28,961 bases of DNA from a virus. Lineage: Duplodnaviria > Caudoviricetes. A model generated the notes under the pieces. The model was not told where the DNA came from and did no database searches. It saw only the letters and a list, made by a program, of their open reading frames with translations. Position 1 is the first letter of the stretch. The number at the start of each line of letters is the position of its first letter. A program made the position numbers and the translations under genes. The stretch lies in IMG/VR virus record IMGVR_UViG_3300023180_000291, positions 1 to 28,961 of that record. One strand, written 5' to 3'. Positions 131 through 28,135 of this stretch are shown one piece after another.

Positions 131-1491
131 TCGGTACAGCTGGGGTCAATGACCAGACGCGGATGACCCTGGGCGCAGACCGCCAGCCGCTCCCCGACGG
201 CGTCCAGTCCTGCCTCGATGTCCTTCCGGGCTGGGGTCGTGTATATGTCGTGATCCCTTGCCAGCGACTCCCGCCCATCTCGGTCGGCGGGGTCGGCCAC
301 GGTCCATTCGTAGAGCTCGGCGCCGGACAGGTTGCGGATCTGGCGAGCATTGCCGGAGAGCTTTACGTCCTGGGTCAGCAGCTCCCGGTAGACCACCAGC
401 TGGTCCCGGTCCACATCGAGCGCAGCCCACAAGCAAGCAAAGTTGAAGCCGAAGTCAATGGCCCGATACTTCGGCCAGTCTTCGGGGATCTGGCCGGCCG
501 GCCGGACGTGGACCGCTCTGGACAGGGAAGGGTAGATCAGGCCCCGTGCGCGTGCAAATTTCCCGTACAGTCGGGCGTCCCGTTTGTGGGGCTCCAAGTG
601 CTGGAAGCGGGCCAGCAGCCCTCTGGACCGGACGTGCGGATTGTCCAGCCCAGTGATCCGGCTGTAGAGGTGACCCGGCGGTGGGTCGTGGACGAAGCGA
701 CTGTAAGCCCAGGTCAGCCCCTTCAGCGGTGTCATACTCAGGATGGCCGGGCCATCCGTTTCTGCAAGTCCCCGGCTTATCTCTTCGTAGACGTCCTCTG
801 GATGCTCTTCGTCCAGGATGGCCGCTCGAGGAGCATTGCCCTGGAATTTTTCGCGCCCCTGGGCAGCAGCTTTACAGACAATCCGCCCGCCGTTGGGGAG
901 GATGACCTCCGCTTGGTCCTGCGCTTTCCATTTGCGACGACGGGAGCCAGCCGGTAGCCATCGGTCCAGCTTCGGCCGGTGATACTCCAGAGAGTCGTTG
1001 AAGGTCAGAGCGGAGACAATCACGGCCCGGTCTGCTGTCGCTGGACTCGCTGGGATGGCGTCCTCTGGTATGCCATTGATCGACAGCCAGCGCCGGACCC
1101 ACCATTCCCCAGACCCCGCAGCCAGGGCCACGGCCAGCTGGATGGCAGACTCACTCTTCCCGGCTCGGTTTGCTCCGCCAATCATGTAGGCGACCAGGCG
1201 CCGACTGGTCAGCAGCTCCCGGATCGTGTCCCGCTGGCTGGTCCGCTCTTCGGGCTGTCCATGCTGGGCGCAGTCAGGATTGACGCAGACGAAGACACCG
1301 CGCTGGTCCTCGACGGGCTCCAGCTCCAGTCCGCATCCCCGTGGACGGTCCGGGTCCAGGTTCCAGCGGGTGCAATGCGGACGCCAGAGACGACCGAACG
1401 CCAGCGGGAAGTCCTGCTCGAGCTGGATCAGCTCCCCAGCAGCCCGCCGAAGGGCGTGGACGTCGACCCGGCTGGCTGGCTGGGCTGTCAT
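1..1491 (-). CDS. terL: Terminase large subunit
   Basis: Walker A GGANRAGKS, Walker B AILDEEH, coupling motif SMTP, DNPH, nuclease motifs AIDFG and DDHLADCLRY. Confidence 0.95.
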   Translation of the reverse strand: MTAQPASRVDVHALRRAAGELIQLEQDFPLAFGRLWRPHCTRWNLDPDRPRGCGLELEPVEDQRGVFVCVNPDCAQHGQPEERTSQRDTIRELLTSRRLVAYMIGGANRAGKSESAIQLAVALAAGSGEWWVRRWLSINGIPEDAIPASPATADRAVIVSALTFNDSLEYHRPKLDRWLPAGSRRRKWKAQDQAEVILPNGGRIVCKAAAQGREKFQGNAPRAAILDEEHPEDVYEEISRGLAETDGPAILSMTPLKGLTWAYSRFVHDPPPGHLYSRITGLDNPHVRSRGLLARFQHLEPHKRDARLYGKFARARGLIYPSLSRAVHVRPAGQIPEDWPKYRAIDFGFNFACLWAALDVDRDQLVVYRELLTQDVKLSGNARQIRNLSGAELYEWTVADPADRDGRESLARDHDIYTTPARKDIEAGLDAVGERLAVCAQGHPRLVIDPSCTELLRELNLYRRKPDGSIHKKDDHLADCLRYLVYYLSLSPQWVV

Positions 1492-1934
1492 TCTTCGTCT
1501 TCGTGGACGACCAGGGACGACAGTTGGCCCCGGATCTCTTCGGCGCGCCCCAGTGTCGATAGCAGCTCATCTAGATCCGCCCCGGTCTGGATCGGTCGGC
1601 GGTCCGCTTCTTTGTACTCCGCCCGGACGTCCAGCTGACGGTGGTATCCGAAGCGCCTCTCCATAATCCAAGCCGCAGCCCTCCAGTCTTCGGCGCTGGC
1701 CTGCTGGATGCGATGCAGGTTCAGCGCTGCACACTGGCTGCGTCCCCGCGAGACGGCGTCCGAAAACTCCCGGTAGATGCTTCCCGGCTCTTCTGATCCA
1801 CGGCGTATCCACTCGAACACCGTCGAACGGGCAACACCGATGTAATCGGACAGCAGGTCTATACTCATGCCCATTTGTGAAGCGGCCAGCGCATCCCGGA
1901 TCAGGTCTTTGTCCAGTTTTGTTGGTCTTCCCAT
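1488..1934 (-). CDS. terS: Putative terminase small subunit (HTH)
   Basis: MGRPTKL start, HTH (IGVARSTVFEW), DWRAAAWIMERRF motif; ATGA overlap with terL; alternative start at 1946. Confidence 0.7.
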   Translation of the reverse strand: MGRPTKLDKDLIRDALAASQMGMSIDLLSDYIGVARSTVFEWIRRGSEEPGSIYREFSDAVSRGRSQCAALNLHRIQQASAEDWRAAAWIMERRFGYHRQLDVRAEYKEADRRPIQTGADLDELLSTLGRAEEIRGQLSSLVVHEDEE

Positions 1935-1952: not shown

Positions 1953-2222
1953 TTAGCGATCCAGACCCCGGACACGCCCTTCCCCGATAGGCCGGAGCTG
2001 GTCCCGGTCTGCGTCCAGGATGGCCTCCATCCGCCAGGCGCCCGCATCCGCTGGACGGCGCGGGAGGACGTCGGCGGGCGCTGGGGTCGTCTCGATGGGC
2101 GCAGCGCTGGACCGGCCGGCCGGCCTGTACCAGTACCAGAAGAGCAGGAGCAGGACGCAGGACGTCCAGACCAGCCCCAGCAGCCCGCAGGCTATCAGGA
2201 TGTCAGTCTGTGTCAGGGTCAT
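1953..2222 (-). CDS. Small membrane protein
   Basis: N-terminal hydrophobic helix ILIACGLLGLVWTSCVLLLLFWYWY; internal ATG at 2222 of the longer ORF. Confidence 0.6.
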   Translation of the reverse strand: MTLTQTDILIACGLLGLVWTSCVLLLLFWYWYRPAGRSSAAPIETTPAPADVLPRRPADAGAWRMEAILDADRDQLRPIGEGRVRGLDR

Positions 2223-3117: not shown

Positions 3118-3960
3118 TCAGGAAGAGACAGGAAGCCAGCATCCGACAGCATCCCCACGACGGGAGCGGGACACGGTCAGGGTTGTCTGGAAGGTCGTGG
3201 CAGATGGACGCCAGCATCCGACCCCGTCCCCGGGGTTGGCCTGTCGGCGGTCGAACGCACGCCCCACAGTCGTCTGGTCCTCTGCGGAATAGTGGACGGT
3301 CAGATCCAGCCGGCCGTCCTCGAGGCGGTCCGCCACCATTGCCAGTCTCCAGCGCTGGGCGCCGTCCGGCCCGTCGTCCAGCCGATACTCAACATGCCTG
3401 GAGCTGGCCGCGATGAGCTCCCGGTGCTCTGGGTCGGTCGGATGGAGCAGGACGGACAGGTCCACAGAGACGCCGTCGTGCTGGGTCGTGACCAGGGCGG
3501 TACGCCAGCGGGGTCGGCGGGTGTTGGGGTCGTCGGTCAGTCTGTACTGGACGGCGGAGTAGTTGAGCATGACAGCGGATAGCTCCAGGATCGTGGGAGG
3601 GGAGGGAAGACCGGGAAGGGGACGGAGGACCAGGACCAGCTGGCCGGAGCAGTAGCCGCAGACCAGATACCCCCAGCCAGGAGGCGGACGTGCTGCGGCG
3701 CGCTGTCGGTCGTCGACCAGGCTGGCCGGATCGGGGACGTCCTGCGGGTCGTCCAGCGGGCGGACAGCCGGACGGCGTGGACGGACACGGAGATACCGGT
3801 CCACGGGAAGGGTCCAGTGCTGCGGCTTTCCGCAGAGCGGACAGGGGAGGGGACCGGATGGCATCTCATACCACCAGGACGTCCGATTGTACCGCAGCCC
3901 GTCCAGCGTGGACGGGTCGGGGATGGGCTCATCAGTCCGGGGATAGGTCAAGTTAGTCAC
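3118..3960 (-). CDS. Hypothetical protein with split zinc-ribbon (CPLC...CGYC)
   Basis: 280-aa ORF in operon orientation with two CxxC pairs. Confidence 0.65.
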   Translation of the reverse strand: MTNLTYPRTDEPIPDPSTLDGLRYNRTSWWYEMPSGPLPCPLCGKPQHWTLPVDRYLRVRPRRPAVRPLDDPQDVPDPASLVDDRQRAAARPPPGWGYLVCGYCSGQLVLVLRPLPGLPSPPTILELSAVMLNYSAVQYRLTDDPNTRRPRWRTALVTTQHDGVSVDLSVLLHPTDPEHRELIAASSRHVEYRLDDGPDGAQRWRLAMVADRLEDGRLDLTVHYSAEDQTTVGRAFDRRQANPGDGVGCWRPSATTFQTTLTVSRSRRGDAVGCWLPVSS

Positions 3961-5143: not shown

Positions 5144-6240
5144 TATTGGCCCCTCCAGAGGTAGGTCTGACCGCCGGACAGGGCGTGGAATACAGCTGCG
5201 ACCATTGCCGGAGAGTAGAACCAGACCGGCCACGCCCGCCCGACGGGGACGCGCTGCTCTGAGTAGCCCGGAAGCCCCTCTCCCCAGACCCCGCCGGACT
5301 CCTGCTTCTCAATCTCCCGGGCGATTTGATGGACCTCCGACTCCGTGACCGTGCGGAATAGCTGGCGAGATACGAGCGTAGCCGCACGGCTTGCAGTCAG
5401 GGTGCATCGGTGATCGTTGCCCCGGCTGGCTGGCTGGCTGAGTGCGGGGACAATCTGCGCGATGGCCTCCCGGACGGCGACGGCGACCACGTCCCGGACC
5501 ATTGCCTCCATGTCTGCGCGTAGCTCTGCGCGTAGCTGGGACCGCAGCTGATCCGTCGTCAGTGCTGCGGCGAAGCGGTCCCCGTCTTGGGTAAGGACTG
5601 CGGCGCCGATCTCCTGCATAAAGTTGGAGCGGGACAGGGCGTTGCGGATCTCAGCGCAGACAGGGGACCGGGACTTCATCAGGGCCAGGGCGACACCGGC
5701 CGGTGTCAGACAGGACAGCTGGCTGGTTGTCTGAATCCAGGAGGGTGACACAAAATTTGTGTCACCCTCAGCCCTCAGTGACGCCAGCTCACTTCCACGC
5801 AGGACGACCAGATGGACACCGGCCCGGTATTCTCTGGACTGCATGATCTGACTCCGGAGTGATCTCGGGGACATCCCCAGCAGCTCCTCCAGCAGCCGGA
5901 CCGGGATCAGCTCCTGACCATCCAGACGCGCCCCCAGCAGCTCCCGCCCGCCGACGTCAATCGGGACCAGGTCGCAGGAGTGTTGCGGCGCTGGAGCTGG
6001 GGCCGGATCTCCGGACCGTCTGCGGTGACGGGTGGGGCGGTGATTGGGCGCCCGCAGGACGAAGTCCCGGCAGGACTCCAGGCTGACCAGACGGCGCCGG
6101 CCCTGCTTGCAGGACACCACCTTCCCGTCGATGATCCAGCCCCGGACCTGGGTTGGTCGGCGCTGGACTGCTCGAGCAGCTTCTTTGAGGGTGACCCAGT
6201 CCGTCCGGCTTAGGTACGGCTCTTCGTTGTAGTTGCTCAT
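5143..6240 (-). CDS. Antirepressor-like protein: excisionase/MerR-type HTH plus ORF6N-like domain
   Basis: WVTLKEAARAV...VRGWIIDGKV HTH; EYRAGVHLVVLRGSELASLR...LSCLTPAGVALALMKSRSPVCAEIR resembles ORF6N; RBS GGAGG. Confidence 0.65.
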   Translation of the reverse strand: MSNYNEEPYLSRTDWVTLKEAARAVQRRPTQVRGWIIDGKVVSCKQGRRRLVSLESCRDFVLRAPNHRPTRHRRRSGDPAPAPAPQHSCDLVPIDVGGRELLGARLDGQELIPVRLLEELLGMSPRSLRSQIMQSREYRAGVHLVVLRGSELASLRAEGDTNFVSPSWIQTTSQLSCLTPAGVALALMKSRSPVCAEIRNALSRSNFMQEIGAAVLTQDGDRFAAALTTDQLRSQLRAELRADMEAMVRDVVAVAVREAIAQIVPALSQPASRGNDHRCTLTASRAATLVSRQLFRTVTESEVHQIAREIEKQESGGVWGEGLPGYSEQRVPVGRAWPVWFYSPAMVAAVFHALSGGQTYLWRGQ

Positions 6241-6255: not shown

Positions 6256-6537
6256 TCAGATTGTAGACCGGCCGGCCGGCCGGACGTCTCTCCAATAGAT
6301 CCAGCCCTTCCGGGAGCACTTTGAGCACGCCCAGCGCCCCACGCTGTCGCCGTCGGTCATGCCCTTCCCTTCCACCGCTCTGGTGTCCACGACGTCCGCG
6401 ATGGACGGGAGCCGGAGCGGGCGCCGGTCTGCTTCCGCAGACGGCTGGACCCGGACCTGGTGGGTCTGACCCGTGCAGAGTCGGCGGGCACAGTCGCGGC
6501 CCTCTCCGGTCCAGCGGTAGTCCGTATACAGGATCAT
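6256..6537 (-). CDS. Small Cys-rich hypothetical protein
   Basis: CARRLC and CSKC motifs; ATGA overlap at 6534-6537. Confidence 0.55.
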   Translation of the reverse strand: MILYTDYRWTGEGRDCARRLCTGQTHQVRVQPSAEADRRPLRLPSIADVVDTRAVEGKGMTDGDSVGRWACSKCSRKGWIYWRDVRPAGRSTI

Positions 6538-7322
6538 GCTCCCTTCCTCTGGGCCAGTCGGCGCCGGACGTGGTCGGCGGGGTCAATCGCGCCGGAGAGG
6601 ACACCGTCCACGATCCGCCGGGCATTGTGGGCGGTCGGGGTCGGTCCCTCCAGCTCTTCGGGGCTGGGGCGGCTGAAGAACGGGCTACGCGGGTCGGCGT
6701 CCCGTTCGTTCCAGCGGGCTCTGGTACCGGTCAGGTACACCTTGACGTCACCGGGGCGGCCGTAGTGCTCCCAGGCTCCCCGAAGGTCCAGAGTCGGACG
6801 CCAGCCGGCCGGCCGGCTTGTCTTCTGGCCTTTCTCCGGCTGGGCTTGCGCGTAGAGCTTCTGTTGGGCGTGGATCTTCCGGCCCTTCTCACAGTCGCAG
6901 AGGACGCGGACGGACCCGATCTTGATGGGCGCAGCATCGAAGAGAACACGCCCGTCCACGGTGGGGAATCGGTGCTGGATCAGCGTCCGGAAGCCGGTCC
7001 CGTGTTCCCGCACGGTCCCGTCGTCCTCCAGGACCTCCCCGCAATGGTGACAGCCCCGGGACTGCTCCCGGCGTTCGCTGCGGAGCTGCGCCTCTACCGT
7101 CAGGCAGAGCCCCAGGAGCTCGGGCGCAGCTGGGAACCATGCGCCCCGGTCGGGGTCACTCATCCAGGAGCGGGTGGCCGCTTCCAGGACTTCGGTGGCG
7201 ATGTTCTGGAGGACGTCGCTGTATGCGCGTTCTGCTGCGATGTCCCCGGGGCGGGGTACCTTTTTCAAGCCGGCGGACCGGCAATAGTCGAAGAGGTCAA
7301 TGATATCGTCTGGGCTTGCCAT
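6534..7322 (-). CDS. Replication helper (helicase loader/inhibitor-like N-terminus) with zinc-finger region
   Basis: YSDVLQNIATEVLEAATRSW...WFPAAPEL resembles the lambda P/G39P-type signature; CHHC and CDC motifs; directly follows the initiator; start at MASPDD after GGAGG. Confidence 0.55.
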   Translation of the reverse strand: MASPDDIIDLFDYCRSAGLKKVPRPGDIAAERAYSDVLQNIATEVLEAATRSWMSDPDRGAWFPAAPELLGLCLTVEAQLRSERREQSRGCHHCGEVLEDDGTVREHGTGFRTLIQHRFPTVDGRVLFDAAPIKIGSVRVLCDCEKGRKIHAQQKLYAQAQPEKGQKTSRPAGWRPTLDLRGAWEHYGRPGDVKVYLTGTRARWNERDADPRSPFFSRPSPEELEGPTPTAHNARRIVDGVLSGAIDPADHVRRRLAQRKGA

Positions 7323-7323: not shown

Positions 7324-8211
7324 CTACACCTCCCACGGTGCTGGGGTTTCGTTTGCTTGCGAGGGTTCTGGGGTAGGTTCTGGGCGCTGGATTCGTCGGC
7401 GGGTTGCCCAGGTTGGGATGCGCTGGTCCGTGTCCTTGACGGCGGGTCTGGACGCCCGGGGAAGCTCCTCCAGCCAGGAGGTCTTGATCCCCTTCCACCC
7501 GCTTTCAATGGCCCGCTCCAGCCCCTGGACCACGTCCTTCCCTTCGCTGTAGGCTTGCAGGAGCTTCCGGTGTGTGCGCTCGATTTGTGCGGGCGACTGT
7601 CTCCAAGTCGACCCCGGCCGGACTTCGCACCACGTTGTAAAGGCGTCCGCGTAGCCAGCCGGAAGCCCATCCGGGATCGGGAGCGCTGCGGCTTGCTGAC
7701 GGGTCAGGCAACGGGTCTTCTTTTTAGCCGGTGTGACTTTCTTAGATCTGTTCACAGATGGAGAAGTCTTGATCTCCTTCAAGTGATCTCCTTCCTGATC
7801 TCCTTCTTGATCTCCTTTGGGTACCTCTGTGGTACGGGTGGGGTACCTCTGTGGTACTGGGGTAGTACCAGGGTGGTACGGGTACCCGTCCCTCTGTGGT
7901 ACTGGTACCTCTGTGGTACTGGTACCAGGGTGGTACTGGTTGACCCGCAGCCAGTCCAGGTCCAGGGTGTAGACGTTGGAGCGACCAGGCGCCCGGGTGA
8001 TCTGGATGGCCCCCAGCTGCTCCAGCTCTGCCAGCGCTCGGAGGACTGACATCCGACTGTAGCCGGTCCGGAGCTGGAGCCGGGGGACCGACGGGTAGCA
8101 GCTCGCATTGCTGCCCAGGTGATCAGACAGCGCCAGCAGGACCAGCTTACAAGCCGGGGACATCTCGGCGCCGAAGACCAGGCGGGCGCGCTGCCAGTAC
8201 AGGTCCCTCAC
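7324..8211 (-). CDS. Replication initiator (N-terminal winged HTH, lambda O-like layout)
   Basis: KLVLLALSDH...CYPSVPRLQLRTGYSRMSVLRALAELEQLGAI...SNVYTL; central repeat linker; C-terminal LERAIESGWKGI. Confidence 0.8.
   Translation of the reverse strand: MRDLYWQRARLVFGAEMSPACKLVLLALSDHLGSNASCYPSVPRLQLRTGYSRMSVLRALAELEQLGAIQITRAPGRSNVYTLDLDWLRVNQYHPGTSTTEVPVPQRDGYPYHPGTTPVPQRYPTRTTEVPKGDQEGDQEGDHLKEIKTSPSVNRSKKVTPAKKKTRCLTRQQAAALPIPDGLPAGYADAFTTWCEVRPGSTWRQSPAQIERTHRKLLQAYSEGKDVVQGLERAIESGWKGIKTSWLEELPRASRPAVKDTDQRIPTWATRRRIQRPEPTPEPSQANETPAPWEV
7771..7936. repeat. Iteron-like repeats, probable replication origin
   Basis: GGTACCTCTGTGGTAC at 7820, 7842 and 7904; variants at 7865, 7890 and 7921; GATCTCCTT four times in 7771-7817. 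Confidence 0.75.
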
Positions 8212-8414
8212 TGACTCACCACATAGACGACGGAGATGACGACGGAGGGGATCAGGACGGTCAGCGCCCAGTCCAGGGCGACGGCGACCAGCTCCAGCCC
8301 GAAGTCCGGCCAGATCAGCCCGGGGACGGTCAGGGCCAGCCCGCAGAGTCCAGTGCCCAGGACGGCGTACCAGATTGTCACGCGGCCAGCCGGCCGGCCT
8401 GTGTTATAGTGCAT
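8208..8414 (-). CDS. Small two-TM membrane protein
   Basis: Two hydrophobic stretches; RBS AAGGAG; GTGA overlap with the initiator; annotated start is GTG-free ATG region near 8414. Confidence 0.6.
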   Translation of the reverse strand: MHYNTGRPAGRVTIWYAVLGTGLCGLALTVPGLIWPDFGLELVAVALDWALTVLIPSVVISVVYVVSQ

Positions 8415-8715: not shown

Positions 8716-8843
8716 GGGTCAACCCGGGCTGCGGAGGGGGTAGCGCCCAGGACAGGGCGCCGGAGGGGAAGCTGGACCGCTCCAGTCTCAGCGTCAGCAT
8801 CATGTCTTGTCAGGAGATTAGCTGCGGAGCGATCCAACGTCAT
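8712..8843 (-). CDS. 43-aa hypothetical protein, not in the ORF track (MTLDRSAANLLTRHDADAETG...)
   Basis: TGATG overlap upstream and GTGA overlap downstream. Confidence 0.45.
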   Translation of the reverse strand: MTLDRSAANLLTRHDADAETGAVQLPLRRPVLGATPSAARVDP

Positions 8844-9091
8844 CAGTCTACCCGCTCCAGCTGGGCGGTGGCAGTCTCTGGAAGGATAGCAGGCGCGTCC
8901 GGCTCAATGCGGACATCCAGCTCTACCTCCAGCGCGTTGACCAGCTTCTGGAGGGTGGACAGGCGCGGGTCGCGGCCCTTCCGGATGTTCTGGAGGGTGT
9001 ACGGCGCAAGCCCAGCCCGCCGGCATATCTCCCGACTGGACAGGCCCGCGTCATCCGCTGCGGACAGGATGTAGTTGAGTATTTTTTCCAT
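8843..9091 (-). CDS. XRE/Cro-like HTH regulator
   Basis: GLSSREICRRAGLAPYTLQNIRKGRDPRLSTLQKLVNALEV; first gene of the leftward operon; alternative start at 9109. Confidence 0.85.
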   Translation of the reverse strand: MEKILNYILSAADDAGLSSREICRRAGLAPYTLQNIRKGRDPRLSTLQKLVNALEVELDVRIEPDAPAILPETATAQLERVD

Positions 9092-9437: not shown

Positions 9438-9449
9438 GGAGCCCGCACA

Positions 9450-10013: not shown

Positions 10014-10051
10014 CCGGCCGGCCGGCTGGCCTGACTTCCCCTTCATCCATG

Positions 10052-11289: not shown

Positions 11290-11345
11290 GTTTGCTGAAT
11301 CCACAAGAAACCCAGGACCAGACTACCGGCCGGCCGGCCGGCCTG

Positions 11346-12620: not shown

Positions 12621-12833
12621 TTATTTGTCCTCCCCAGCCGGCCGGCCGGTCAGTCTGTGTAGTGTGCGGGCGACCAGCTCCCGGACGGCGCGTAGTCTCC
12701 AGGTCAGGTGCGCAAACGGCGTCCACTCTGCGGGCAGCTCTGCGTCAGGGCGGACCCGGGCGCCTGGTTGGGGCGTCCAGCCTCCGGCCGGTGTCACGGT
12801 GACCCGCTCCCGCTTCCAGGTTGCTCTATCCAC
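12621..12833 (-). CDS. Hypothetical protein (MDRATWKRE...)
   Basis: GGGAGG RBS before GTG at 12833; stop abuts the next ATG. Confidence 0.5.
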   Translation of the reverse strand: MDRATWKRERVTVTPAGGWTPQPGARVRPDAELPAEWTPFAHLTWRLRAVRELVARTLHRLTGRPAGEDK

Positions 12834-13311: not shown

Positions 13312-13826
13312 CAGATCCCCCCGTCCATCCCCCATCCGCCCGGGTCGCTGGTGACCTCGAGGGCGGACGGGCGGGACTCGGGGACGTCCACGACGGACAC
13401 CGAAGCGGCGACCGGCTGGCCGGCTGGCCTGCGATTGTCCACGATCCTGGGGAAGCGGCCCCGGACTTCGCCCAGGGTGGGGATGTCACCACGGCGACGA
13501 CGGCGCCGACGTGCAGCCCGGACGAAGAGCCGGAGCAGCTGCTCTATTGCCAGCCCGTCCAGCAGCTCCACGATCTGACCAGCCAGCCCCGGGAGGACTT
13601 TCTCCCAGTCCACCGCGTCGTCCAGCTTTCCGGCCAGGAGCGGGACGGAGTCCACATAGCGGTCCCGGATCTCCTCATAGACCAGCTCTTCGTCCAGGCC
13701 CATCTCGAAGAGGTCCAGCGCTTCCTGGACGATCTTGGGGCGTGCTTTCTGGATTGCTGCTTTTAGCTGTCGCAGTCGCTCCTGGGCGGCTTGTAGGATC
13801 TTCGTCTTCATAGGGGTGGGCTCCAT
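13311..13826 (-). CDS. Hypothetical helical protein with an Arg7 run
   Basis: TAATG overlap with the endolysin stop. Confidence 0.65.
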   Translation of the reverse strand: MEPTPMKTKILQAAQERLRQLKAAIQKARPKIVQEALDLFEMGLDEELVYEEIRDRYVDSVPLLAGKLDDAVDWEKVLPGLAGQIVELLDGLAIEQLLRLFVRAARRRRRRRGDIPTLGEVRGRFPRIVDNRRPAGQPVAASVSVVDVPESRPSALEVTSDPGGWGMDGGI

Positions 13827-14799: not shown

Positions 14800-15237
14800 T
14801 TAGACTCTGTATACCGTAACTGCGACCGATAGCGAAACGCTCCCGGCGGTCGTTGCCATCGTGATCCCTACCGTGACAACCCCTTTCGCGCTGACCCACG
14901 CTGCTGGAGCGCTGCGGACGGTGCTGGGGGCGTTCTGTGCCAGCCCCACCACGACCAGGTCCCCGACTCGGGCGTCCGCCACATTGATGGTATCCGTTAG
15001 CCATGCGTTGGGGATGCCCGGGTTGTCCACGTTGATCGTGTCCGTCTTCAGTGCTCGCAGACGGGGACCGCCGACGGGCTCCGGGAGCAGACGGAGCCGG
15101 CGGGAGCCCAGGGCCAGGACCAGCTGCTCCGAAGCAGCGTCAAGATACAGGACCGGCCGGCCGGCCGGCGGGTCGGGGATCTCCCGCAGTCTGGGGAGCG
15201 CCAGGCAGGACGCCAGGATTCCGCGTAGTCTGCTCAT
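14800..15237 (-). CDS. Putative small tail fibre/tip protein (MSRLRGIL...)
   Basis: GGAGG RBS and ATGA overlap; C-terminal VADARVGDLVVV...AWVSAKGVVTV beta-sandwich pattern seen at fibre ends. Confidence 0.55.
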   Translation of the reverse strand: MSRLRGILASCLALPRLREIPDPPAGRPVLYLDAASEQLVLALGSRRLRLLPEPVGGPRLRALKTDTINVDNPGIPNAWLTDTINVADARVGDLVVVGLAQNAPSTVRSAPAAWVSAKGVVTVGITMATTAGSVSLSVAVTVYRV

Positions 15238-16844
15238 GTCCCGCCGTCCTCCGTGATGTCCAGCGGAAGCACGGCCAGGGTCAGGCGCGTCCTGTTGGCC
15301 CGTAGGTCCATTTGTTCCCGGATGACGAAGACCGGCCGGCCGGCGTAGCCGTCCCGCGTCCCATCCAGCCGTCCATACGCGGCAGAGCTGGTCAGGTGGA
15401 TGACGTCCCCAGGGGCATAGGAGCGCAGACCCCAGACCGTAACCTCCACATACTCCGGGCATAGGTGGCCCCAGGGCGCCAGCCGGTCCCGGGTCTCCAC
15501 GGCGATGTCTGCCGCATTGGACCGGGCTATCGTCTGATCGACCAGATCATAGGGCAGCTCCTCCCGGCTGGGGAGGGTCGTGGTGTTGCTGACGGAGCTG
15601 GACACGCTGGTTCCGTGGTAGACCCGGACGGCGGTGAAGGTTTCCGGGACGTCGGCGGGGTACCAAGTGACGCTGGGGACTTCGGCCAGGTCGTCGTCTG
15701 ATAGGTCCGCTACCTGCCGGTTCAAGCCGGCCGCGTTGGGGTCACGGGCGACCCTGGGCACGATCATGCCCTCCCGGACGCAGATCCAGATCCCAGCAGC
15801 GCCCCAGGTCTGGGCGATCCACGCGGCGGGGTCGTCTATTTCCTGCTCTACAATCAGTCTCCAATGGTAGCTGCCGGAAGACAGGGCCAGTATCCGCTCC
15901 GCTTGCGCCCAGGCGCCCAGGTCGAAGAGCTCCGCAGGGATGGCCAGCCCCCACTGCTGGGGGTAGATGTCGGCGGGTCCATTGGACCCGGTCCCGGTGC
16001 TGGTCAGGACACGCCGTAGAATGTCCAGCGGATGGCCCTCGAGCAGCACCGCGCTGGACACCCGGTTGCCAGCTGCGGCGTCCCCTTCGGTCGTGCCATA
16101 CTGTCCGGAGCTGGACAGCCCGGACAGGGTGGACACGGACTGTCCGGTGAAGCTCAGATAGAAGTCATCCCCGCTGTCCGGTGTGACCCGGACCGCGCCT
16201 TCCTGTCCAATCTCTGTCAGGAAGCGGCCGGCGGTGCTTCCGGTGATGGTCAGGCTGCTGTCCCCGGCGGTGTAGTCGCTGGCCAGTGTGTCCTGCTGAC
16301 CGGCGCAGCCATAGAAGAGCCGCTGGCGGACGTCCGACCCGCTCCCGACGGTGGACGGGCGTGTCCGAAGTCCGGTCTGGAGGTCCCAAATATCCACCCG
16401 GAAGGTAGACGGGTGCCCATCTTGCCGCACGCTGTATACCCGCCCCAGACGAAGGGGCTGATAGTCGCTCCGACTGTAGCCCGTCTCTCCGATACTCAGC
16501 CGGACGAAGGCGCCCCGACGAAGGGCCTGGGCAGCAAGGGCCAGATAGGACCGGCCGGCACTGGTCCCGCTGGGCGTCCCGTCGGGGATCTGGATCGTGA
16601 CCGACCAGGCGCCTTCAACGTAGCTCCACGACTGCGGACGGACTGCGGACGCGCCCAGGGCAGGCTCGTAGCCCCTCTTTTGAAGAAGATAGGCGAAGGG
16701 CTGGAGGCTTGGGTCCGTGCAAGCGAACCAGCGGTCCAGGCCAACACCTTCCCCGGTCGCCGGTATCCAGACGTCCAGTATCAGCGACTGGTGGACGCGC
16801 TGACCGCTGTAGAGCTGCTGTCTAAAGGAAACGGGCCAGGGCAT
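15234..16844 (-). CDS. Tail tip/hub protein
   Basis: Second gene after the tape measure; GHPLDILRRVL and C-terminal YAPGDVIHLT...TRLTL typical of siphovirus hub proteins. Confidence 0.65.
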   Translation of the reverse strand: MPWPVSFRQQLYSGQRVHQSLILDVWIPATGEGVGLDRWFACTDPSLQPFAYLLQKRGYEPALGASAVRPQSWSYVEGAWSVTIQIPDGTPSGTSAGRSYLALAAQALRRGAFVRLSIGETGYSRSDYQPLRLGRVYSVRQDGHPSTFRVDIWDLQTGLRTRPSTVGSGSDVRQRLFYGCAGQQDTLASDYTAGDSSLTITGSTAGRFLTEIGQEGAVRVTPDSGDDFYLSFTGQSVSTLSGLSSSGQYGTTEGDAAAGNRVSSAVLLEGHPLDILRRVLTSTGTGSNGPADIYPQQWGLAIPAELFDLGAWAQAERILALSSGSYHWRLIVEQEIDDPAAWIAQTWGAAGIWICVREGMIVPRVARDPNAAGLNRQVADLSDDDLAEVPSVTWYPADVPETFTAVRVYHGTSVSSSVSNTTTLPSREELPYDLVDQTIARSNAADIAVETRDRLAPWGHLCPEYVEVTVWGLRSYAPGDVIHLTSSAAYGRLDGTRDGYAGRPVFVIREQMDLRANRTRLTLAVLPLDITEDGGT

Positions 16845-17659: not shown

Positions 17660-19407
17660 CAGTTACGGCCCCTCAACCCGGTGTCCGGGTCTGTAAACTG
17701 GGCGAACCTTCGCAGGAAGGCGTCCTGTGTTCCATCGTCGACGCCCAGAGCATTGACCACGACGGAAGCTTGCGACTGGGACGCCGTCGGCGCCCTGCTG
17801 ATTGCCAGCCGTGTTGCCCCATCTGCACGGGCCAGCCGGCCGGCGGTCGCGGCCCTTGCGGAGCTGGAGGACCGGCTCCGTCCTGTCGCCCGTCGGATCA
17901 GTCCCGCCGTGATTGCTGCGGATGGGCTGGAGGTGGCCAGGAAGTCCCCAGCCTGGGACAGTATCTCTCCAGTATCTAAGCCCAAGCCTATCCCGTCGTC
18001 CGTCCGCTCTGCGGACAGTCCCGGGATGCGGTCCAGTAGACGGGCGAAGACCTCCGCCATGGCGTCCGCGATGGCGTCCGGGAGCACTTCGGCCAGCTGG
18101 ACGACGAACTCTGGGAAGACATCCAGCAGGACCTCCGGAAGTGCTTGCAGTCCGGCGATCAGCTGCTGACCCAGCTGGTCCAGCTTGTCCTCCACACCCT
18201 GGGCGCCCAGCGCCCCCAGTGCAGACAGTCCGGAGATGATGGCCCCGGCCGGCCCCAGTGCCCCCAGTGCAGCGGTCGGACTCGACAGCAGCCCGATAGC
18301 CTGTCCAGCGCCCGCCCCGATACCGGACAAGCCAGCCTGGAAAGCGCCCGCCCGGGGATCTGGACCGACGACGGCCCCAGCGCCCTGGAGCGCGGCCAGC
18401 CGTTGGCGGACTTCTATCTGACGCTGGAGCAGGTCCACGCGCTCCTGGAGTGCTGCGGACCGCTCTGCAAACGGCGCGTCCAGGTCCACGCCCAGCCCCG
18501 TGGCGCCCGGACCAGTCCGGAAGCCTGCAGCCTCGAAAGCTTCGGCCAGAGACATGACCGCTTCCGCCTGCTGCTCGATTGCTTCGGTGACTTGCGTGGT
18601 CGTCGTGACGGCGCCGGTTTGAATGTCGGACACCGTCCGCAGATTTTCGGCGTAGCGCTCCTGGGCGATCCGGAGGTTGGACAGGGCGTTGGCTTCCCGG
18701 TCCACGATGGACGCCAGCCGGTCCCGCTCGTCGCGGATCAGCTTCAGCTGGACCAGCTCCGTCTGACTCGACTCCCGGAAGGCTTCGTCCCCCATCCGCT
18801 CCCGCGTCCGCTGGAGCCGCTGCTGTTCCTTCTCGAATAGCTCTTGCTGGGCTTGGGCTTCCTGCTCTGCCAGCCGGACCGACTCCTGCTGCTGTTGGAT
18901 CTGCTCCCGGTACAGGTCGGCCGCAGTCTGGGCGGCACTGTTGGCATTGAATTGCGCTTGTGTGATCTCGCCAGTCGCCAGCGCAGCCAGGAGCGCAGCC
19001 TCCTTTACCCGGGTATGGAGCTGGGCCATTGTGGTGGCACGCTGGGCGCTGACCTCCATAGCCTGGTTTGCGGCGTCCAGACGCTGCTTGAGGATCAGAT
19101 ACGCACCGCCCAGCGCTCCCGCAGCCACGGCGACCGGACCCAGGACGCGGAGCAGCGACCCGGACAGCCCGCCCGCAACCTCCAGACCGTCTGCAAAGTC
19201 GTTGACGACCCGGGCGCCCTCCTCGAGCGCTGGATTGATGCGCCCCAGGACTCCGCCCAGTCGTCCAGCTGCGGTCCCCACCTTCCCGGCCCGGTCCTCC
19301 ATGCGACGGAGTCCGCGCTCCGTTCTGTCGGCCTGGTCCTCCAGTACCCGCAAATTCGGGACGCTGTCGGCGGTGTCCGTGCGGACAGTGTGGGTATAGA
19401 CCGCCAC
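17659..19407 (-). CDS. Tape measure protein
   Basis: 582 aa, Ala/Gly/Gln-rich helical, hydrophobic LGPVAVAAGALGGAY segment; follows the chaperones. Confidence 0.85.
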   Translation of the reverse strand: MAVYTHTVRTDTADSVPNLRVLEDQADRTERGLRRMEDRAGKVGTAAGRLGGVLGRINPALEEGARVVNDFADGLEVAGGLSGSLLRVLGPVAVAAGALGGAYLILKQRLDAANQAMEVSAQRATTMAQLHTRVKEAALLAALATGEITQAQFNANSAAQTAADLYREQIQQQQESVRLAEQEAQAQQELFEKEQQRLQRTRERMGDEAFRESSQTELVQLKLIRDERDRLASIVDREANALSNLRIAQERYAENLRTVSDIQTGAVTTTTQVTEAIEQQAEAVMSLAEAFEAAGFRTGPGATGLGVDLDAPFAERSAALQERVDLLQRQIEVRQRLAALQGAGAVVGPDPRAGAFQAGLSGIGAGAGQAIGLLSSPTAALGALGPAGAIISGLSALGALGAQGVEDKLDQLGQQLIAGLQALPEVLLDVFPEFVVQLAEVLPDAIADAMAEVFARLLDRIPGLSAERTDDGIGLGLDTGEILSQAGDFLATSSPSAAITAGLIRRATGRSRSSSSARAATAGRLARADGATRLAISRAPTASQSQASVVVNALGVDDGTQDAFLRRFAQFTDPDTGLRGRN

Positions 19408-19620: not shown

Positions 19621-20163
19621 TCAGCGACGAAACGGGCCCCAGAGTCCGGCTACCTCCTGAGCCGGCGCCAGAGCTGCGGACATGATCGCGGCCAGTCCAT
19701 CAATACGCAGGACACGCTCCAGGCAGAGCCGGACGCCGTCTTCGTCGTCGCCCTCTTCGTCGTCGGTGTCTACCCAGGTGATCGGGTGCCAGGTGTCTGG
19801 GTCGTCCAGATCCTGGACGTGCGTAACGACAGCCCGGACGACCCGCTGGCTCTTCTGCAGGGTGTCGGCCAGCGTGTCCAGCCGTTCCTGCTCCGACTGC
19901 TTCCGGGCCTCCAGCTCCGCAGCGGCCAGTCCGTCCAGGTCCTCCGGCGCCGGCTTCCGGGCGCTGTCGATAAAGCTGTAAAGCGTGGTCAGCAGGATAC
20001 CCAGGCGGGCAGCTTCCGCAACCCCGATATAGCGGACCTTGAAGGCAAGCCGGACGGAGCCCAGGTCCTGATACGCCACGGCGCTGGATGCGTCCTGGAT
20101 GCGGCTGAACATCGACGAGCCGGCCGGCCGGCTGGCCTGTTGTCCTGGGTCAGTTTGCATCAT
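19621..20163 (-). CDS. Tail assembly chaperone (gpG-like)
   Basis: Acidic helical protein between tail tube and tape measure. Confidence 0.7.
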   Translation of the reverse strand: MMQTDPGQQASRPAGSSMFSRIQDASSAVAYQDLGSVRLAFKVRYIGVAEAARLGILLTTLYSFIDSARKPAPEDLDGLAAAELEARKQSEQERLDTLADTLQKSQRVVRAVVTHVQDLDDPDTWHPITWVDTDDEEGDDEDGVRLCLERVLRIDGLAAIMSAALAPAQEVAGLWGPFRR

Positions 20164-21142: not shown

Positions 21143-21153
21143 CTCGGGATCTC

Positions 21154-21960: not shown

Positions 21961-21961
21961 C

Positions 21962-23495: not shown

Positions 23496-23504
23496 GGTCA
23501 GACC

Positions 23505-23891: not shown

Positions 23892-23911
23892 GGTGATACT
23901 CCAATGTGTGC

Positions 23912-23947
23912 GACACCCCGGCCGGCCGGCCGGCTGGTCAGGGTGTC
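23912..23947 (-). terminator. Stem-loop after the capsid gene enclosing a (CCGG)4 tract
   Basis: GACACCC (23912) and GGGTGTC (23941); no strong U-tract. Confidence 0.4.
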
Positions 23948-23955
23948 AGGATTGA

Positions 23956-25449
23956 TCAGGACAGCCAGTTGTAGCCGAAGCGGGCGACAGCTTCCGAAGA
24001 GCCGGACACCGTCTTGAAGCAGCGACGGAGGGTAGCCACGACGTGGGTCCCGCCCGTCTTGATGTCCCGCTCCATCTCCACCAGGTTGCCCCGGCGCTGG
24101 TAGTGGAAGAATGCGGAGCGGTCCACGGCGATGGCACCGGAGAGGGCGCCGGAGCCGGTGTAAAGACCCGTCGCGGCCAGGTCAGCGGACAGGAAGCGGG
24201 ACACGATGATGGGGTGCCCGAAGACGGACGCCAGCTGGCCGGACAGGAGGGTTGCGCCCTGTCCCAGCTTGTCCAGGGTCAGGACGTTGGAGTCTGCCAG
24301 GAGCTTCTGGTAGAAGACCTCCGGGCTAACGATGATTGCCAGCTGCGATGCAGCGCGCTCCCCCATCCCGCCGATCAGGTCGGTCATCAGTCCGGTGACG
24401 GTCTGAGCGCTGCCCATGTCCACGGTCTGGGAGCGGTCCGCAGCCAGGGCACGAAGACCCAGGAAGATGCGGCGGTGATCCGCAGCCCCGCCCAGTCCGG
24501 AGGCGCCCCAGCGGGAGCGGATGTTCCAGGAGCTGATCGCGTCCTGGTGTGTCGCGGCGGTGTCACCGTTGATCATGGCGTCTTCATAGCCGTCATTCAG
24601 GGCGTCCACGACCAGACGGCGGACCAGGGGCTCCATTGCAACAACGGCGTCCTCTGCATCCATCTCGTCGTACACGACGCGCACGGCCCAGTTGGTGACC
24701 GTGATCGTGGTTTCAGAGGTCACCGGGGTGGAGCCGGTGTAGTTGGTCGGGTCGTCGCTGGAGATGGCGTTTCGCTTGTAGGGACGAACGCCGGTCGTCA
24801 GCTTGGGCTGGAGCATCGTCGCGTTCGGCATATCGACGATCCCGAAGAGCTGGGCGACCGCGTTGGGGACCTGGAACTCTTCGTAGATGCTGGGGAAGGT
24901 TCCGTCTGGAATCCACTCCGCACCGCTTCCGGCGGTGTCGGTGATCGCCTTCTCGATTGCGCCCCGGATGCCCTGGGGAGCACGATGGAGCAAGGACAGG
25001 ATCTCGGCGTCCGTGCGGGGGGTGGCCGGGTTCTTTGCGACCAGGCGGACCAGGGACCGACGCTCAACGGCGCTCTGGAGCTCGCGGTGCCAGTCGGTCA
25101 GGACGGTTTTGTCGTCCAGCAGCCCGGGCTGGTCAATCTCAGCGACACGCCCGCCGAACTTAATCCGACGGACACCGCTCTTGAGATGGACCCGGCCGCT
25201 GTCGTCGGTGTAGCGCTGGATCAGCTCCCGGTCTGGGGTGCCGACTGCGGTACGCTGGGCGGGACGGGCCTGACCTTCCAGGACGCTCTGGAGCTTTGCA
25301 GACAGGTCAGACACGGCGCGCTGGGTCGCCACCTGGTCGCCAGCGGTCCGGGTCAGGACGGCGCTTGCTTCTTTCAGGTGCTCCCGGAGCGTGGACTCCG
25401 TGATCTTGTCTGGAACGGACAGGCTCTTGGTTTCTTCATTGCCGAACAT
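23956..25449 (-). CDS. Major capsid protein (HK97 fold) with N-terminal scaffold/delta region
   Basis: KAITDTAGSGAEWIPD, EDAMINGD, SVFGHPIIVS; AAGGAG RBS; follows the protease. Confidence 0.92.
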   Translation of the reverse strand: MFGNEETKSLSVPDKITESTLREHLKEASAVLTRTAGDQVATQRAVSDLSAKLQSVLEGQARPAQRTAVGTPDRELIQRYTDDSGRVHLKSGVRRIKFGGRVAEIDQPGLLDDKTVLTDWHRELQSAVERRSLVRLVAKNPATPRTDAEILSLLHRAPQGIRGAIEKAITDTAGSGAEWIPDGTFPSIYEEFQVPNAVAQLFGIVDMPNATMLQPKLTTGVRPYKRNAISSDDPTNYTGSTPVTSETTITVTNWAVRVVYDEMDAEDAVVAMEPLVRRLVVDALNDGYEDAMINGDTAATHQDAISSWNIRSRWGASGLGGAADHRRIFLGLRALAADRSQTVDMGSAQTVTGLMTDLIGGMGERAASQLAIIVSPEVFYQKLLADSNVLTLDKLGQGATLLSGQLASVFGHPIIVSRFLSADLAATGLYTGSGALSGAIAVDRSAFFHYQRRGNLVEMERDIKTGGTHVVATLRRCFKTVSGSSEAVARFGYNWLS

Positions 25450-25455
25450 ACCGGC

Positions 25456-27969
25456 TTACTCCTTCAGAAAGGGCAGACCGGTGGCCTGCGTTGGGGACTC
25501 TTGAAGCCATGACAGGGCGTCAGGCTCCGGGGGAGAAGTTACGCCCAGCAGCGCCCGCAGGCGTCGTCTGTTTGTGGCGTTGGCAAGCAGCGCCCGCAGC
25601 TCTTCGTCTGCGGCGGTTGCACTGGCAGCAATCAGGGCGGACCCGTTGGCGGGGACCGGGGTAATGGAGAACTCCACCAGCTCATTGTCTGAGGCGACGA
25701 TCCCGAAGGACTTGGGATCGTAGCGTGGATCGTCCTTCGGCAGCTCGGACCGGTACTGGACCGCCCCAGGGAAGAAACCGACGGAGCCCGCATTGATGAA
25801 GCCCCGTTGGATCTTGCCGGCGACCTCTGCGGCAAACGGGTCAGCCAGGTCAAACTCCATCTCAATCTCCAGCTGGCCGTCCACGACTTCGACGGCGGTT
25901 GCTCGAGCAATCGGCGGGCGGGTGCTGTCGTGGTTCCAGAGGATCACGGGGTTCCGCTTGTAGCTGTCCAGGTGCCAGGACTGCTCCACGACGTCGCCCA
26001 TCCGGTCTACCTCTGCGGTAGATGCGACGAAGCGGAAGACGGACTGGATCAAGGGCTCTTCTTCGTCTGCGGCCAGCTGTAGGCGCTTCAAAGTGACCCC
26101 GACATTGTGGCGCACGTCGGCCTCCTTTGCGGCGACGTGGCGCCGGCTCTGTTCTTTCTCTTCTTCGTCGGCCGCGTCCATTTGGCGCCCGATTTTATCC
26201 GCCCAGCTCCGGCCAGGGTCACCGAACCAGGCTGCCCAGGCGACCCGCCCCGGGCTGGGGTATCCAGGCTCCCCAGGGTTGAAGCCTTCCCCTTCCTGGT
26301 CGGACTCATGGCGGGCAAACCACGCCCGCATCCGGCGCGCTTTCTCGAAGGTGATGTCCTCGCCGTTGGCGACCTTGCGCGCCCAGACCTTCGTGGACTG
26401 GACCATGCCATCCCCGGCCAGTCCCTCTTCAATCCATCGGACGGCGCGCTCTGCTTCTTCGACCATGCCAGCGGTTGGCGTAAAGTCAATGTGATCGTAT
26501 TTGGTCGGCGTCGGGCGGGTGATCAGGCTCTTAAGGTCCTCTTCGGTGACAGCCCGATAGAAGCAGCGGCATTGCGGATGCCTGGGCAGCTCGGGACCGT
26601 CGTGGCTTCCGTCTGGGGCGACCAGATAGACCTCGTCGTGCTCTGGGCCGCATATCTCGCAGACCCGTTCATCCACGGCGGTCTGGTACCGGACAGCATA
26701 GGGAACGGCCCGCTGCTGGAAGGGTAGGACGTTGCGGACCTCCGGCTCCGGCTCCGCAGCTGCGGCCGGCTGGCTGGCCGGCTGGAGCATGGTTTCGTCT
26801 ATTTCGGTGAAACCCTCAACCTGTAGCGCCGCGATGGGCTCCAGGCCGAACTTTTCAACCAGTAGAGCCGCCCGTGTCATCCGGTCCGTCCGGGACTCCT
26901 GGAGGGCTTCGACGTTGCTGGTATCGTGTGCGACCCGGTCCGATACCCGGCCCATCCTGACGGCGACGACAGATAGCGCGTCCTCGACCAGTGCGATCAA
27001 GCCAAGCAGGTTCTGCCAGTAGATTCTGTTCTGTTGCTTCGCCGTGGCGAAGTTGGCGCTGGGCAGGAAGAGGCGGACGTAAGCCACGCCGACAACGGCC
27101 AGGATGGACGCCCGCGTCCAGTCCCGGGCAGCGCTGAACTCCATGTCCCGGGCGTTGAAGGGCAGCTGGGTAATATCGACCGGCCCGCCGATGGGGACGA
27201 TGCCGGTTCGGTTGGCGTGCCTCTGGATGGATGCAACCAGCTTTTCCAGCACGTCGGGACGGATGCTTGCGCCGTCCTTCGGGCTGATCGTCATCGTAGG
27301 CTGACCGCGTCCGGCTTCGTCTCTCCAGCGCTGGCTGGCCGCATACTCCCCGGTCAGCTCCGTCTCCAGGACTTCAATGACACCCTGTCCGTAAAGACTC
27401 TGCGGCCCGTCCCGGTAGCTGGTCTGCCGGACGTGGACCACGTCGTCCGGGCTGTAGTCTGTAGAGACGCCCTCTTCGGTGTAGCGGTACGCAGCGACCC
27501 CGCCGGAGCTGGAGGGGATGATCTGGACGTGCTCTGGATGGAGCCGGACCAGACTGGTCACCGACGAACCCCGCCCCAGGATCAGCGCAAAATAGTTGCC
27601 GGTCAAGAGCAGGTCCACGATCATCTGCCGGCGCCACAGTGTCGGTCCGGTATTCGAGGTCGGGCGCTCCATCAGCCGCAGGAAGGGGTGACGCTGCACG
27701 GCCCGGTTCCGGTCACCGACCAGGCGCCGGACCTGAAGCGGTAGACCGGCGATGTCCGTGGCTACGGCTTCCACGGCCGCATAGATCCAGGGGAACTTGC
27801 CGAACGCGCTCATGGAGTTGACGGCCGGATAGGGCTGCTGGACGCCGACTTCCTGACTCCATGCGTGTCCGTACCTGATCTGTTCCGGCTCTTCGACCAC
27901 TTGGAGCCGGCGGATGATCCAGCGCCAGCCCTCTGCGATGCGGTCCGCGATTGTTCGGGATTGACTCAC
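25456..27969 (-). CDS. Fusion protein: HK97-type portal + MuF/gp7-like Cys module + unknown domain + HK97 prohead protease
   Basis: Portal: WIYAAVEAVATDIAGLP, LLLTGNYF, DDVVHVR, DMEF. MuF-like: DERVCEIC...PRHPQCRC. Protease: FVAST..VDRMGD, NPVILWNHD, GSVGF, ELVEFSITPVPAN. Confidence 0.9.
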   Translation of the reverse strand: MSQSRTIADRIAEGWRWIIRRLQVVEEPEQIRYGHAWSQEVGVQQPYPAVNSMSAFGKFPWIYAAVEAVATDIAGLPLQVRRLVGDRNRAVQRHPFLRLMERPTSNTGPTLWRRQMIVDLLLTGNYFALILGRGSSVTSLVRLHPEHVQIIPSSSGGVAAYRYTEEGVSTDYSPDDVVHVRQTSYRDGPQSLYGQGVIEVLETELTGEYAASQRWRDEAGRGQPTMTISPKDGASIRPDVLEKLVASIQRHANRTGIVPIGGPVDITQLPFNARDMEFSAARDWTRASILAVVGVAYVRLFLPSANFATAKQQNRIYWQNLLGLIALVEDALSVVAVRMGRVSDRVAHDTSNVEALQESRTDRMTRAALLVEKFGLEPIAALQVEGFTEIDETMLQPASQPAAAAEPEPEVRNVLPFQQRAVPYAVRYQTAVDERVCEICGPEHDEVYLVAPDGSHDGPELPRHPQCRCFYRAVTEEDLKSLITRPTPTKYDHIDFTPTAGMVEEAERAVRWIEEGLAGDGMVQSTKVWARKVANGEDITFEKARRMRAWFARHESDQEGEGFNPGEPGYPSPGRVAWAAWFGDPGRSWADKIGRQMDAADEEEKEQSRRHVAAKEADVRHNVGVTLKRLQLAADEEEPLIQSVFRFVASTAEVDRMGDVVEQSWHLDSYKRNPVILWNHDSTRPPIARATAVEVVDGQLEIEMEFDLADPFAAEVAGKIQRGFINAGSVGFFPGAVQYRSELPKDDPRYDPKSFGIVASDNELVEFSITPVPANGSALIAASATAADEELRALLANATNRRRLRALLGVTSPPEPDALSWLQESPTQATGLPFLKE

Positions 27970-28135
27970 AGTAGACCGGATAGCCCAAACAAACCCGGAT
28001 AGTCAAGGGGCTGTCTCTGCCCTCTTCGCCGTATTCGTCGGGGTATCCGGCCGGCCGGCCGGTGATGTTCAGCGATAACGGTCGGGGCCCCCTACACGCC
28101 AGTCAAAGAGCGCCCCGACCGGGGAACATCCCCAG

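Follow-up and report, generated by a model that had tools for sequence, protein, structure and literature searches.

A polar, evenly spaced CCRG repeat dispersed through a small phage genome, with candidate reader proteins

The window analysed here, the 28,961-nt virus record IMGVR_UViG_3300023180_000291 (the whole of G000), is a circular phage contig of ~28.83 kb whose ends overlap by 130 bases and in which a short tandem repeat recurs throughout the genome. On the minus strand, which carries most of the genes, the element has the form (CCRG)4-5, often GA-(CCRG)4-TC(A), and occupies 16-20 bases. It is fixed in length, under purifying selection, polar, evenly spaced and restricted to one clade. 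It is likely that the tracts are docking sites for one sequence-specific protein. As to their purpose, we favour, with a probability of about 0.35, sequence-specific priming or primosome loading on the lagging-strand template.

An initial annotation of this DNA listed 21 tracts of "(CCGG)n type", and each listed position does hold a run of at least three CCGG, CCAG or CTGG units. As it reported, the exact 12-mer CCGGCCGGCCGG is present in 13 of the 21 tracts and CCTG follows directly in seven; the GC content, put at ~67%, measures 64.7%. The tracts are thus real, and the label is better replaced by a polar (CCRG)4-5 on the gene strand, within which the single-unit substitutes CAGG, CCTG and CATG are tolerated. 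Markov models of orders 0-5 fitted to the genome fail to reproduce the count, giving means of 0.02-1.3 and a maximum of 4 non-overlapping 12-mers (60 simulations per order) against 13 observed. An order-6 model, whose training takes in the tracts themselves, gives a mean of 5.6 and a maximum of 12. Run length in the window peaks at four units, with 715 single units, 19 two-unit, six three-unit, 10 four-unit and two five-unit runs; two-unit runs are not enriched, nor is GCNNGC outside the tracts. Two extra three-unit runs, at 3636 and 24231 (CCAGCTGGCCGG), look like background.

The polarity hinted at in the initial annotation is clear once relatives are included. Tracts of at least four units in five genomes contain 82 CCGG, 74 CCAG and just 2 CTGG units, and a synonymous-site control shows no comparable strand bias (G-to-A fraction 0.33/0.84/0.74/0.52 vs C-to-T 0.31/0.68/0.72/0.30). 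One site per genome falls within an oppositely transcribed operon; its orientation remains that of the main strand in the window and in the relatives G003, G001, G002 and G004. Copies within genes are read in different frames, as had been claimed, all three being used (8, 4 and 3 of 15).

Selection on the DNA itself, also proposed at the outset, is borne out by fixed length, constraint at four-fold sites and conservation in relatives. Compared with G003 and L002, four-fold positions have changed at 4 of 80 places in tracts and at 1654 of 6982 (23.7%) elsewhere. At the aligned sites of these two genomes unit number is constant and indels are confined to the flanks, the exception to constant length being one copy grown to eight units in G001. 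Relatives whose capsids are 77-100% identical carry sites at syntenic positions, namely the terS/terL junction, the portal linker, the stretches that follow the capsid, tube and 536-aa tail genes, the stretch ahead of the 98-aa gene, the opposite operon and the surroundings of the replication genes; the gene calls behind statements on synteny and gene presence were made within this analysis. Local turnover of sites is also seen (L140). Pure four-unit runs number 40 in 169 kb, spread over 12 of 16 relative loci (62-99% capsid identity; the loci are not independent), and none occurs in the 446 kb of 42 outgroup loci with GC contents of 58% or more. In a viral-contig scan covering 29 of 64 parts, nine motif-bearing loci of at least 2.5 kb have three or more sites, and eight of these nine are clade members.

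These observations make it very improbable that the tracts arose neutrally, by microsatellite slippage or composition, or, as far as the genomes sampled show, that they are a host HIP1-like or methylation word. The element does consist of short tandem units, with one expanded copy, and CCGG and GGCC are methyltransferase targets, but the peak at four units, the protected four-fold sites, the constant unit number and the outgroup zero all speak against such an origin. Slippage in particular was rejected, since neither the run-length distribution nor length variation among close relatives fits it; close relatives keep the tracts in both length and position. Neither of the two outcomes that the initial annotation named as refuting it, a Markov model matching the count and random variation among relatives, was observed.

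The consensus is lineage-specific, and in one lineage it is pure CCAG x4. G001 and G002 have equal background CCGG:CCAG ratios but differ in their tracts, at 19:13 and 0:28 respectively (p = 2e-7). Within the CCRG clade, this drift parallels a shift in GC content from 65% to 54%.

Intergenic sites account for 6 of 19 in the window (p = 0.003) and for 9/13, 8/11, 8/12 and 4/7 in relatives. Many sites follow a stop codon at a distance of 0-30 nt or precede a ribosome-binding site, and many others are mid-gene. Spacing in the window is more even than random (coefficient of variation, CV, 0.44-0.51; p ~0.001 or less), with a largest gap of 2848 nt, and the evenness holds against a null that takes gene junctions into account (p = 0.0003 in the window, 0.02 in G001 and 0.004 in G002). 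Polarity, even spacing and constraint together back the initial proposal of a dispersed protein-recognition code, with a reader that is putative and suggested from sequence.

Asymmetric, dispersed sites that are enriched between genes and oriented with the transcription of about nine tenths of the genome could serve stoperator-like silencing, in which a phage repressor blocks elongation along the main direction of transcription. A lineage-specific consensus (G001 against G002) and the presence of two XRE genes, with degenerate sites after XRE1 in G001, G002, G004 and G005, would suit this mechanism. We nevertheless consider it somewhat unlikely. No tract lies at the divergent early promoter (window 9092-9212) or in the equivalent gaps of G001, G002 and G004, and a different, AT-rich repeat, GTGACTAAAATAAATATCAG, is found there (~9140-9155) and upstream of other early genes (10087-10104, 28411-28430 and 28452-28471). 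This repeat, which is likely to be a promoter/operator for the XRE proteins, is present in G003 as well; exact search found none in G001, G002, G004 or G005. XRE1 is replaced in G003, being 48% identical where most genes exceed 90%, and the recognition helices of XRE2 differ among lineages, while the motif is kept in both cases. Neither integrase nor ParB was found, and the even spacing shows no cluster at one end. The helix-turn-helix (HTH) binders named in the initial annotation are accordingly weakened for XRE1, as they are for the HTH_17/"ORF6N" protein, which is confined to the window and G003. A promoter scan gave 3 and 0 consensus hits, the chance level, and a TTGACA-18-TAGTCT around 11326 is absent at the other sites.

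The sites just after stops or before ribosome-binding sites could instead act in RNA, as REP-like hairpins or as protein sites that stabilise or process polycistronic mRNA, and the post-capsid site and a few others do lie in hairpins with complementary flanks. No hairpin conserved at every copy was found, however. Flank pairing does not exceed that of swapped controls in the window, G001 and G004 (p = 0.21, 0.22 and 0.35); it does so only in G002, G005, L139 and L141, where a few sites drive the excess. On the coding strand, the folding energy of three of the 11 sites in G002 is no better than -1 kcal/mol, and compensatory CCAG...CTGG pairs are almost absent. With many sites mid-gene, we regard an RNA-level role as improbable.

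One-strand polarity, together with the terS/terL junction site shared by six genomes, would also fit programmed strand nicks or marks for packaging or ejection, such as T5- or phiKMV-like interruptions or docking of the small terminase (TerS). TerS is conserved with an HTH that varies by lineage, and G001, G002 and G004 encode an HNH gene. Against this, neither a nickase nor HNH was found in the window (69 open reading frame scans against Pfam; PHROGs), and a second word, described below, is common to phages with unrelated packaging modules. We think nicking or packaging marks unlikely.

The reading that we prefer, priming on the lagging-strand template, would run as follows. We infer that the element is read by a protein and works at the level of DNA, not RNA, that its function is priming, and that the reader is a phage replication protein, with a 262-aa zinc-motif protein as our best guess. 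Replication would be one-directional and of rolling-circle type, and the tracts would direct priming or primosome loading on the lagging-strand template. Sites would be placed where they cost least, just after stops and in linkers, with extra copies written into long genes so as to leave no gap above ~3 kb in the window (5 kb in relatives). Gaps of 0.2-2.8 kb are of Okazaki-fragment size. We prefer priming because polarity, coverage every 1-3 kb, cheap placement, absence from the early promoter, drift of the consensus and the primase-like gene described below fit together.

The 262-aa protein is encoded beside rep, and its position and sequence make it our best guess for the reader. It is 44-48% identical across lineages and retains four invariant cysteines; the initiator is swapped between the window and G001, G002 and G004, while the 262-aa protein and the tracts persist. 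The interior of rep contains six iterons of a 22-nt family (17-23 nt) at 7819-7941, together with 12-nt repeats at 7767-7819, and this region is the likely origin. The tracts themselves were rejected as Rep iterons, the iterons being a separate family clustered at 7819-7941. A second candidate reader, a 280-aa protein present in 11 of 11 clade loci, has a poor structural model (pLDDT 46, best Z 5.4 to SH3/Tudor-like folds; Atlas matches below 0.9). It contains two zinc-binding motif pairs and two tandem SH3/Tudor-like repeats, and is extended at the N terminus to ~440 aa in G001, G002 and G005. The ParB_N domain (PF02195) is absent from the window, G003 and the more distant G409, and in G002 is found only as a methylase-fused domain.

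A second dispersed word gives the priming reading its comparative side. G409 (L158, L396-L397) belongs to the family at 48% capsid identity but lacks CCRG tracts. In its 27.1 kb the word ACGAA(T/G)TCGA(A/C)TTCGT occurs 13 times, at places comparable to those of the tracts, including after terL, in the portal gene and after the capsid gene. An exact-word scan of all viral contigs returned 29 stretches, with dense arrays in three contigs only: G409, G414 (L401-L407; 80 copies in 139.5 kb) and G415 (31 copies in 62.4 kb). G414, of which G415 is a relative, is T4-like (gp23 capsid, gp20 portal, sheath) and unrelated to the siphophage G409. In G414 the spacing is again even (CV 0.70, p = 0.0006, smallest gap 338), and 42 of the 80 sites are intergenic against 15% expected. 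With ~78 of the 139 kb of G414 compared, the only strong match to G409 is one primase-like gene, 44% identical, whose product has a CHC2 zinc finger and Atlas neighbours that include RepB' primases at 0.95. Its model is poor (pLDDT 42; no match at E 0.001, PrimPol at E 0.29, weak winged-helix rows). These are the only two viral contigs found to encode the protein, and none was found in cultured phages. In G409, three copies of the word, 209 and 246 bp apart, stand just upstream of this gene, all other gaps being at least 859 bp. We suggest, tentatively, that phages may write an evenly spaced ~16-bp map for priming or primosome loading, and that its lineage-specific word may travel with the reader, so that unrelated co-hosted phages would share a word.

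Several observations weigh against priming. The window encodes no primase; six-frame profile searches found no homologue of the primase-like protein in the window or G001-G005, and PF16793 is absent. The 262-aa protein has no Pfam or PDB match, so that its helicase-loader-like role is presumed from a resemblance and from its position only. Site density near the loader gene is only slightly raised (3, 3, 4 and 1 vs 2.1, 1.5, 1.7 and 1.1 expected), and gaps of 4.9-5.0 kb are present in G001 and G002. A minus-strand consensus promoter at window 10161-10132 points over the 10014 site, which may therefore follow transcription. G414 also encodes a DnaG-type zinc-finger protein and a DnaB helicase, and a G326 prophage that encodes a distant, full-length relative of the primase-like protein shows only promoter and ribosome-binding-site repeats and no such array. 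Nor need the two words work alike, the second being palindromic and the CCRG word polar. Finally, tetranucleotide usage correlates at r = 0.91 between G409 and G414, against 0.32-0.72 for ten others; this similarity suggests that the two phages share one host, and a shared host factor would explain their common word equally well.

A host factor could be served by marks for Chi-like protection, the nucleoid or anti-defence "self" mimicry, with phages of one host converging on a word. That one 16-mer occurs both in a small siphophage and in a T4-like phage unrelated to it but almost identical in composition is consistent with this, as is the parallel between CCRG drift and GC content, and polarity with even coverage would suit a tracking enzyme. 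Neither word, however, is dense in the sampled cellular genomes. The host HIP1-like word suggested by the initial annotation is not supported in the genomes sampled: (CCRG)4TC is present in at most 2 copies per genome in 301 genomes of the phylum of G006, the only one with a host hint, the host of the phage not having been identified. The second word reaches at most 10 copies with one mismatch in 251 cellular genomes and 0-12 in 43 of one family. No unrelated phage among the loci examined has a dense CCRG array (0 of 5 unrelated contigs followed up), and short words of two units show no enrichment. We therefore regard host-factor marks as rather doubtful.

Three weak hints point to a host among the Myxococcota/Deltaproteobacteria. 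A capsid profile from a close alignment has no match in cellular genome contigs; one from a broad alignment finds 15 distant loci in metagenome-assembled genomes (MAGs) of mixed phyla. A capsid match is present in 1 of 401 genomes of G006's phylum. One "Myxococcota bacterium" label occurs among the cluster members for the primase-like protein homologue, and none for the capsid.

Several known systems offer comparisons. KorB-OB and ParB-type operators are ~16-bp sites dispersed over small replicons, within and between genes; the window, G003 and G409 differ in lacking a ParB_N domain, and the tract is polar and not a fixed palindrome. Over-represented words written through genes also include the HIP1 motif of cyanobacteria, DNA uptake sequences and the sites of CdbA in Myxococcus xanthus, a protein that binds a GC-rich direct repeat according to the available text of PMC7156744. 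These three are words of host chromosomes with hundreds to thousands of copies, whereas the CCRG word is at background level in the sampled cellular genomes.

Closer parallels come from phages. Cluster O mycobacteriophages, in the available portion of PMC4351075, carry 17-bp dyad repeats in more than 30 copies genome-wide, about one third coding and not tied to promoters, and that text gives no integrase, parAB or function for the repeats. Dispersal within and between genes, independence from promoters and lack of integrase and parAB are shared with the window. The Cluster O repeats as described there are invariant inverted repeats, without orientation and denser at one end, whereas the tracts here are a polar tandem of four tetramers, evenly spaced and with a lineage-specific consensus. 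Cluster A/MabJ stoperators, as far as the accessible text of PMC9934374 goes, resemble the tracts in being asymmetric, dispersed, mostly intergenic, in one orientation and subject to lineage drift. Those sites are 13-14 bp long, form a cluster near the right cos end and are oriented with transcription; one of them, to which the immunity repressor binds, overlaps the early promoter (same portion of PMC9934374). In the window, by contrast, the divergent early promoter is free of tracts and a matching repressor was not found. Single-strand initiation signals are represented by ssi/pas of phiX174 (PMC5714925, in part) and by ssiA/ssiB of RSF1010, read by RepB' (PMC8567376, in part). They resemble the tracts as strand-specific DNA signals, and a RepB'-like protein accompanies the analogous word in G409 and G414. 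The known ssi are one or two structured origins of at least 40 nt, whereas here there are about twenty repeats of 16-20 bp in a window without a primase gene.

A literature search, made mostly without subscription journals, found no account of the CCRG element or its layout. On sequence grounds the element appears to be a previously undescribed variant of the dispersed phage repeats known from mycobacteriophages. Such repeats (stoperators, Cluster O) are known but mostly unexplained, and the present case rules out chance, slippage, iterons and ParB. The change from CCGG-rich tracts to pure CCAG x4, with CTGG excluded, is a natural experiment in specificity drift, and a second word is common to unrelated phages together with a primase-like gene. 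Short oligonucleotides and two or three small proteins could serve to tell priming, silencing and host mimicry apart. If the tracts do serve priming, a phage that appears reliant on host primase would have the starts of its Okazaki fragments hard-coded; if the word travels with its reader, sequence alone could identify the reader or co-hosted phages.

Table 1. Sites of the CCRG element, with replication and candidate reader genes, in window coordinates.
Coordinates	Strand	Feature	Remarks
490..505	-	(CCRG)4 site within terL	
1468..1483	-	(CCRG)4 site, terS/terL junction	8 nt into terL; syntenic G001-G005
2112..2127	-	CAGG+(CCGG)3 site, 89-aa gene	syntenic L140
4207..4222	-	CAGG+(CCRG)3 site, 224-aa gene	
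5422..5437	-	(CCRG)4 site, 365-aa HTH_17 gene	
6268..6283	-	(CCGG)4 site, 3' end of 93-aa gene	syntenic after loader gene in G001, G004, G005
6801..6820	-	site ~506 nt into 262-aa loader-like gene	equal place G003, G004, weakly G005
8386..8401	-	site 13 nt into 68-aa gene	upstream of rep
10014..10033	-	site right after stop of 187-aa gene	oppositely transcribed operon; main-strand orientation kept
11326..11345	-	five-unit site, late operon end	
12634..12649	-	site 13 nt before 98-aa gene	last unit CTGG; syntenic G001, G002, G004
13412..13431	-	five-unit site, 166-aa lysis-region gene	
15153..15172	-	site just after 536-aa tail gene	syntenic G001, G002, G004
15332..15343	.	three-unit (CCGG)3 site, 536-aa tail gene	
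17828..17843	.	weaker site, 582-aa gene (tape-measure position)	apparently reversed
20120..20139	-	site between tail tube gene and next gene	syntenic G001, G002, G004, G005, L144
22302..22313	-	site 118 nt into 157-aa gene	same offset G001, G003; 108 nt in L144
22715..22730	.	weaker site, neck gene	apparently reversed
23918..23937	-	five-unit site 18 nt after major capsid stop	hairpin-forming flank; syntenic G001, G002, G005, L139-L141, L144
26766..26785	-	five-unit site, portal-protease fusion linker	syntenic G001-G005, L139-L141
28047..28062	-	(CCGG)4 site upstream of portal gene	
1488..1934	-	small terminase (TerS) with HTH	candidate reader
3118..3960	-	280-aa zinc-finger + tandem SH3/Tudor-like protein	clade-restricted; second candidate reader
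6534..7322	-	262-aa protein adjoining rep	invariant CxxC...CxC; clade-restricted; candidate reader, putatively helicase-loader-like
7324..8211	-	O-like replication initiator (rep)	
8843..9091	-	XRE1	

Most genes of the window lie on the minus strand. Among those recognised are terS and terL, genes for a portal-protease fusion, the capsid, head-tail proteins and the tail tube, and those for a GH19 endolysin, the O-like initiator and the two XRE proteins. Integrase, ParB and HNH were not found in the scanned window reading frames (Pfam, PHROGs), and the nearest cultured phage terminases are below 30% identity. Portal and prohead protease form a single 837-aa reading frame (window 25456-27969) throughout the family, with a tract inside the linker. 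G001, G002, G004 and G005 encode a ParB_N-fused N6/N4 methylase, an HNH nuclease and RusA, all three of which are missing from the window. Lineages with 85% identical capsids differ by 10 GC points.

Sequence near-identical to the window is present in salt-marsh, estuary and freshwater runs. Among contigs derived from the reads of four runs (positions 9000-28800), none of the four listed joints links two tracts; the sequence at one loose contig end (23922) agrees with the flank of the 6801 tract, most plausibly through misplacement from outside the compared stretch. The 128-aa gene after the capsid gene is missing, together with the post-capsid tract (window 23494-23954), in G003 and in the contigs of two runs.

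The primase-like proteins belong to an unnamed family (L396:3839-5593; L370:6335-8269) of ~500-680 aa with 72 representatives, and no Pfam model covers the whole protein. They have a winged-helix-like N-terminus, a CHC2 zinc finger and a C-terminus like that of archaeo-eukaryotic primases, with DxD, TSxxGxQ and DP..H..R motifs. Copies of the second word viewed in G234 and G204 look compositional. De novo searches of other outgroup loci gave no convincing array except in L158, and degenerate words in GC-rich loci could escape such searches. Words from L169, L140, L145, L174 and L214 were rejected as coding-bias words, and the G326 repeat, considered as a third array, proved to be a promoter with its ribosome-binding site. 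This prophage region (G326:C36:29980-60920) contains 13 near-identical promoter and ribosome-binding-site blocks (GGACCTACCAACAGAGAG), with ATG 6 nt downstream. De novo scans also showed dispersed repeats in two MAG loci, L216 (1-12000) and L222 (780-9100): CCCGATTCTA/CGGGACTGTTCCCG; AACGAAAATG.

CTAG occurs twice per strand in the window against ~44 expected. CGCG, CTCG/CGAG and GAAT/ATTC are depleted too, and CGATCG is present once only; these depletions suggest restriction avoidance. CGATCG is not avoided by the close relatives G004 and L006. A (CAAG)4 run at window 10272-10287, upstream of an early gene, has the tract-like C..G period with another unit, and GCAAGCAA words resembling it are found at window 8436-8446 and in the 28480 region.

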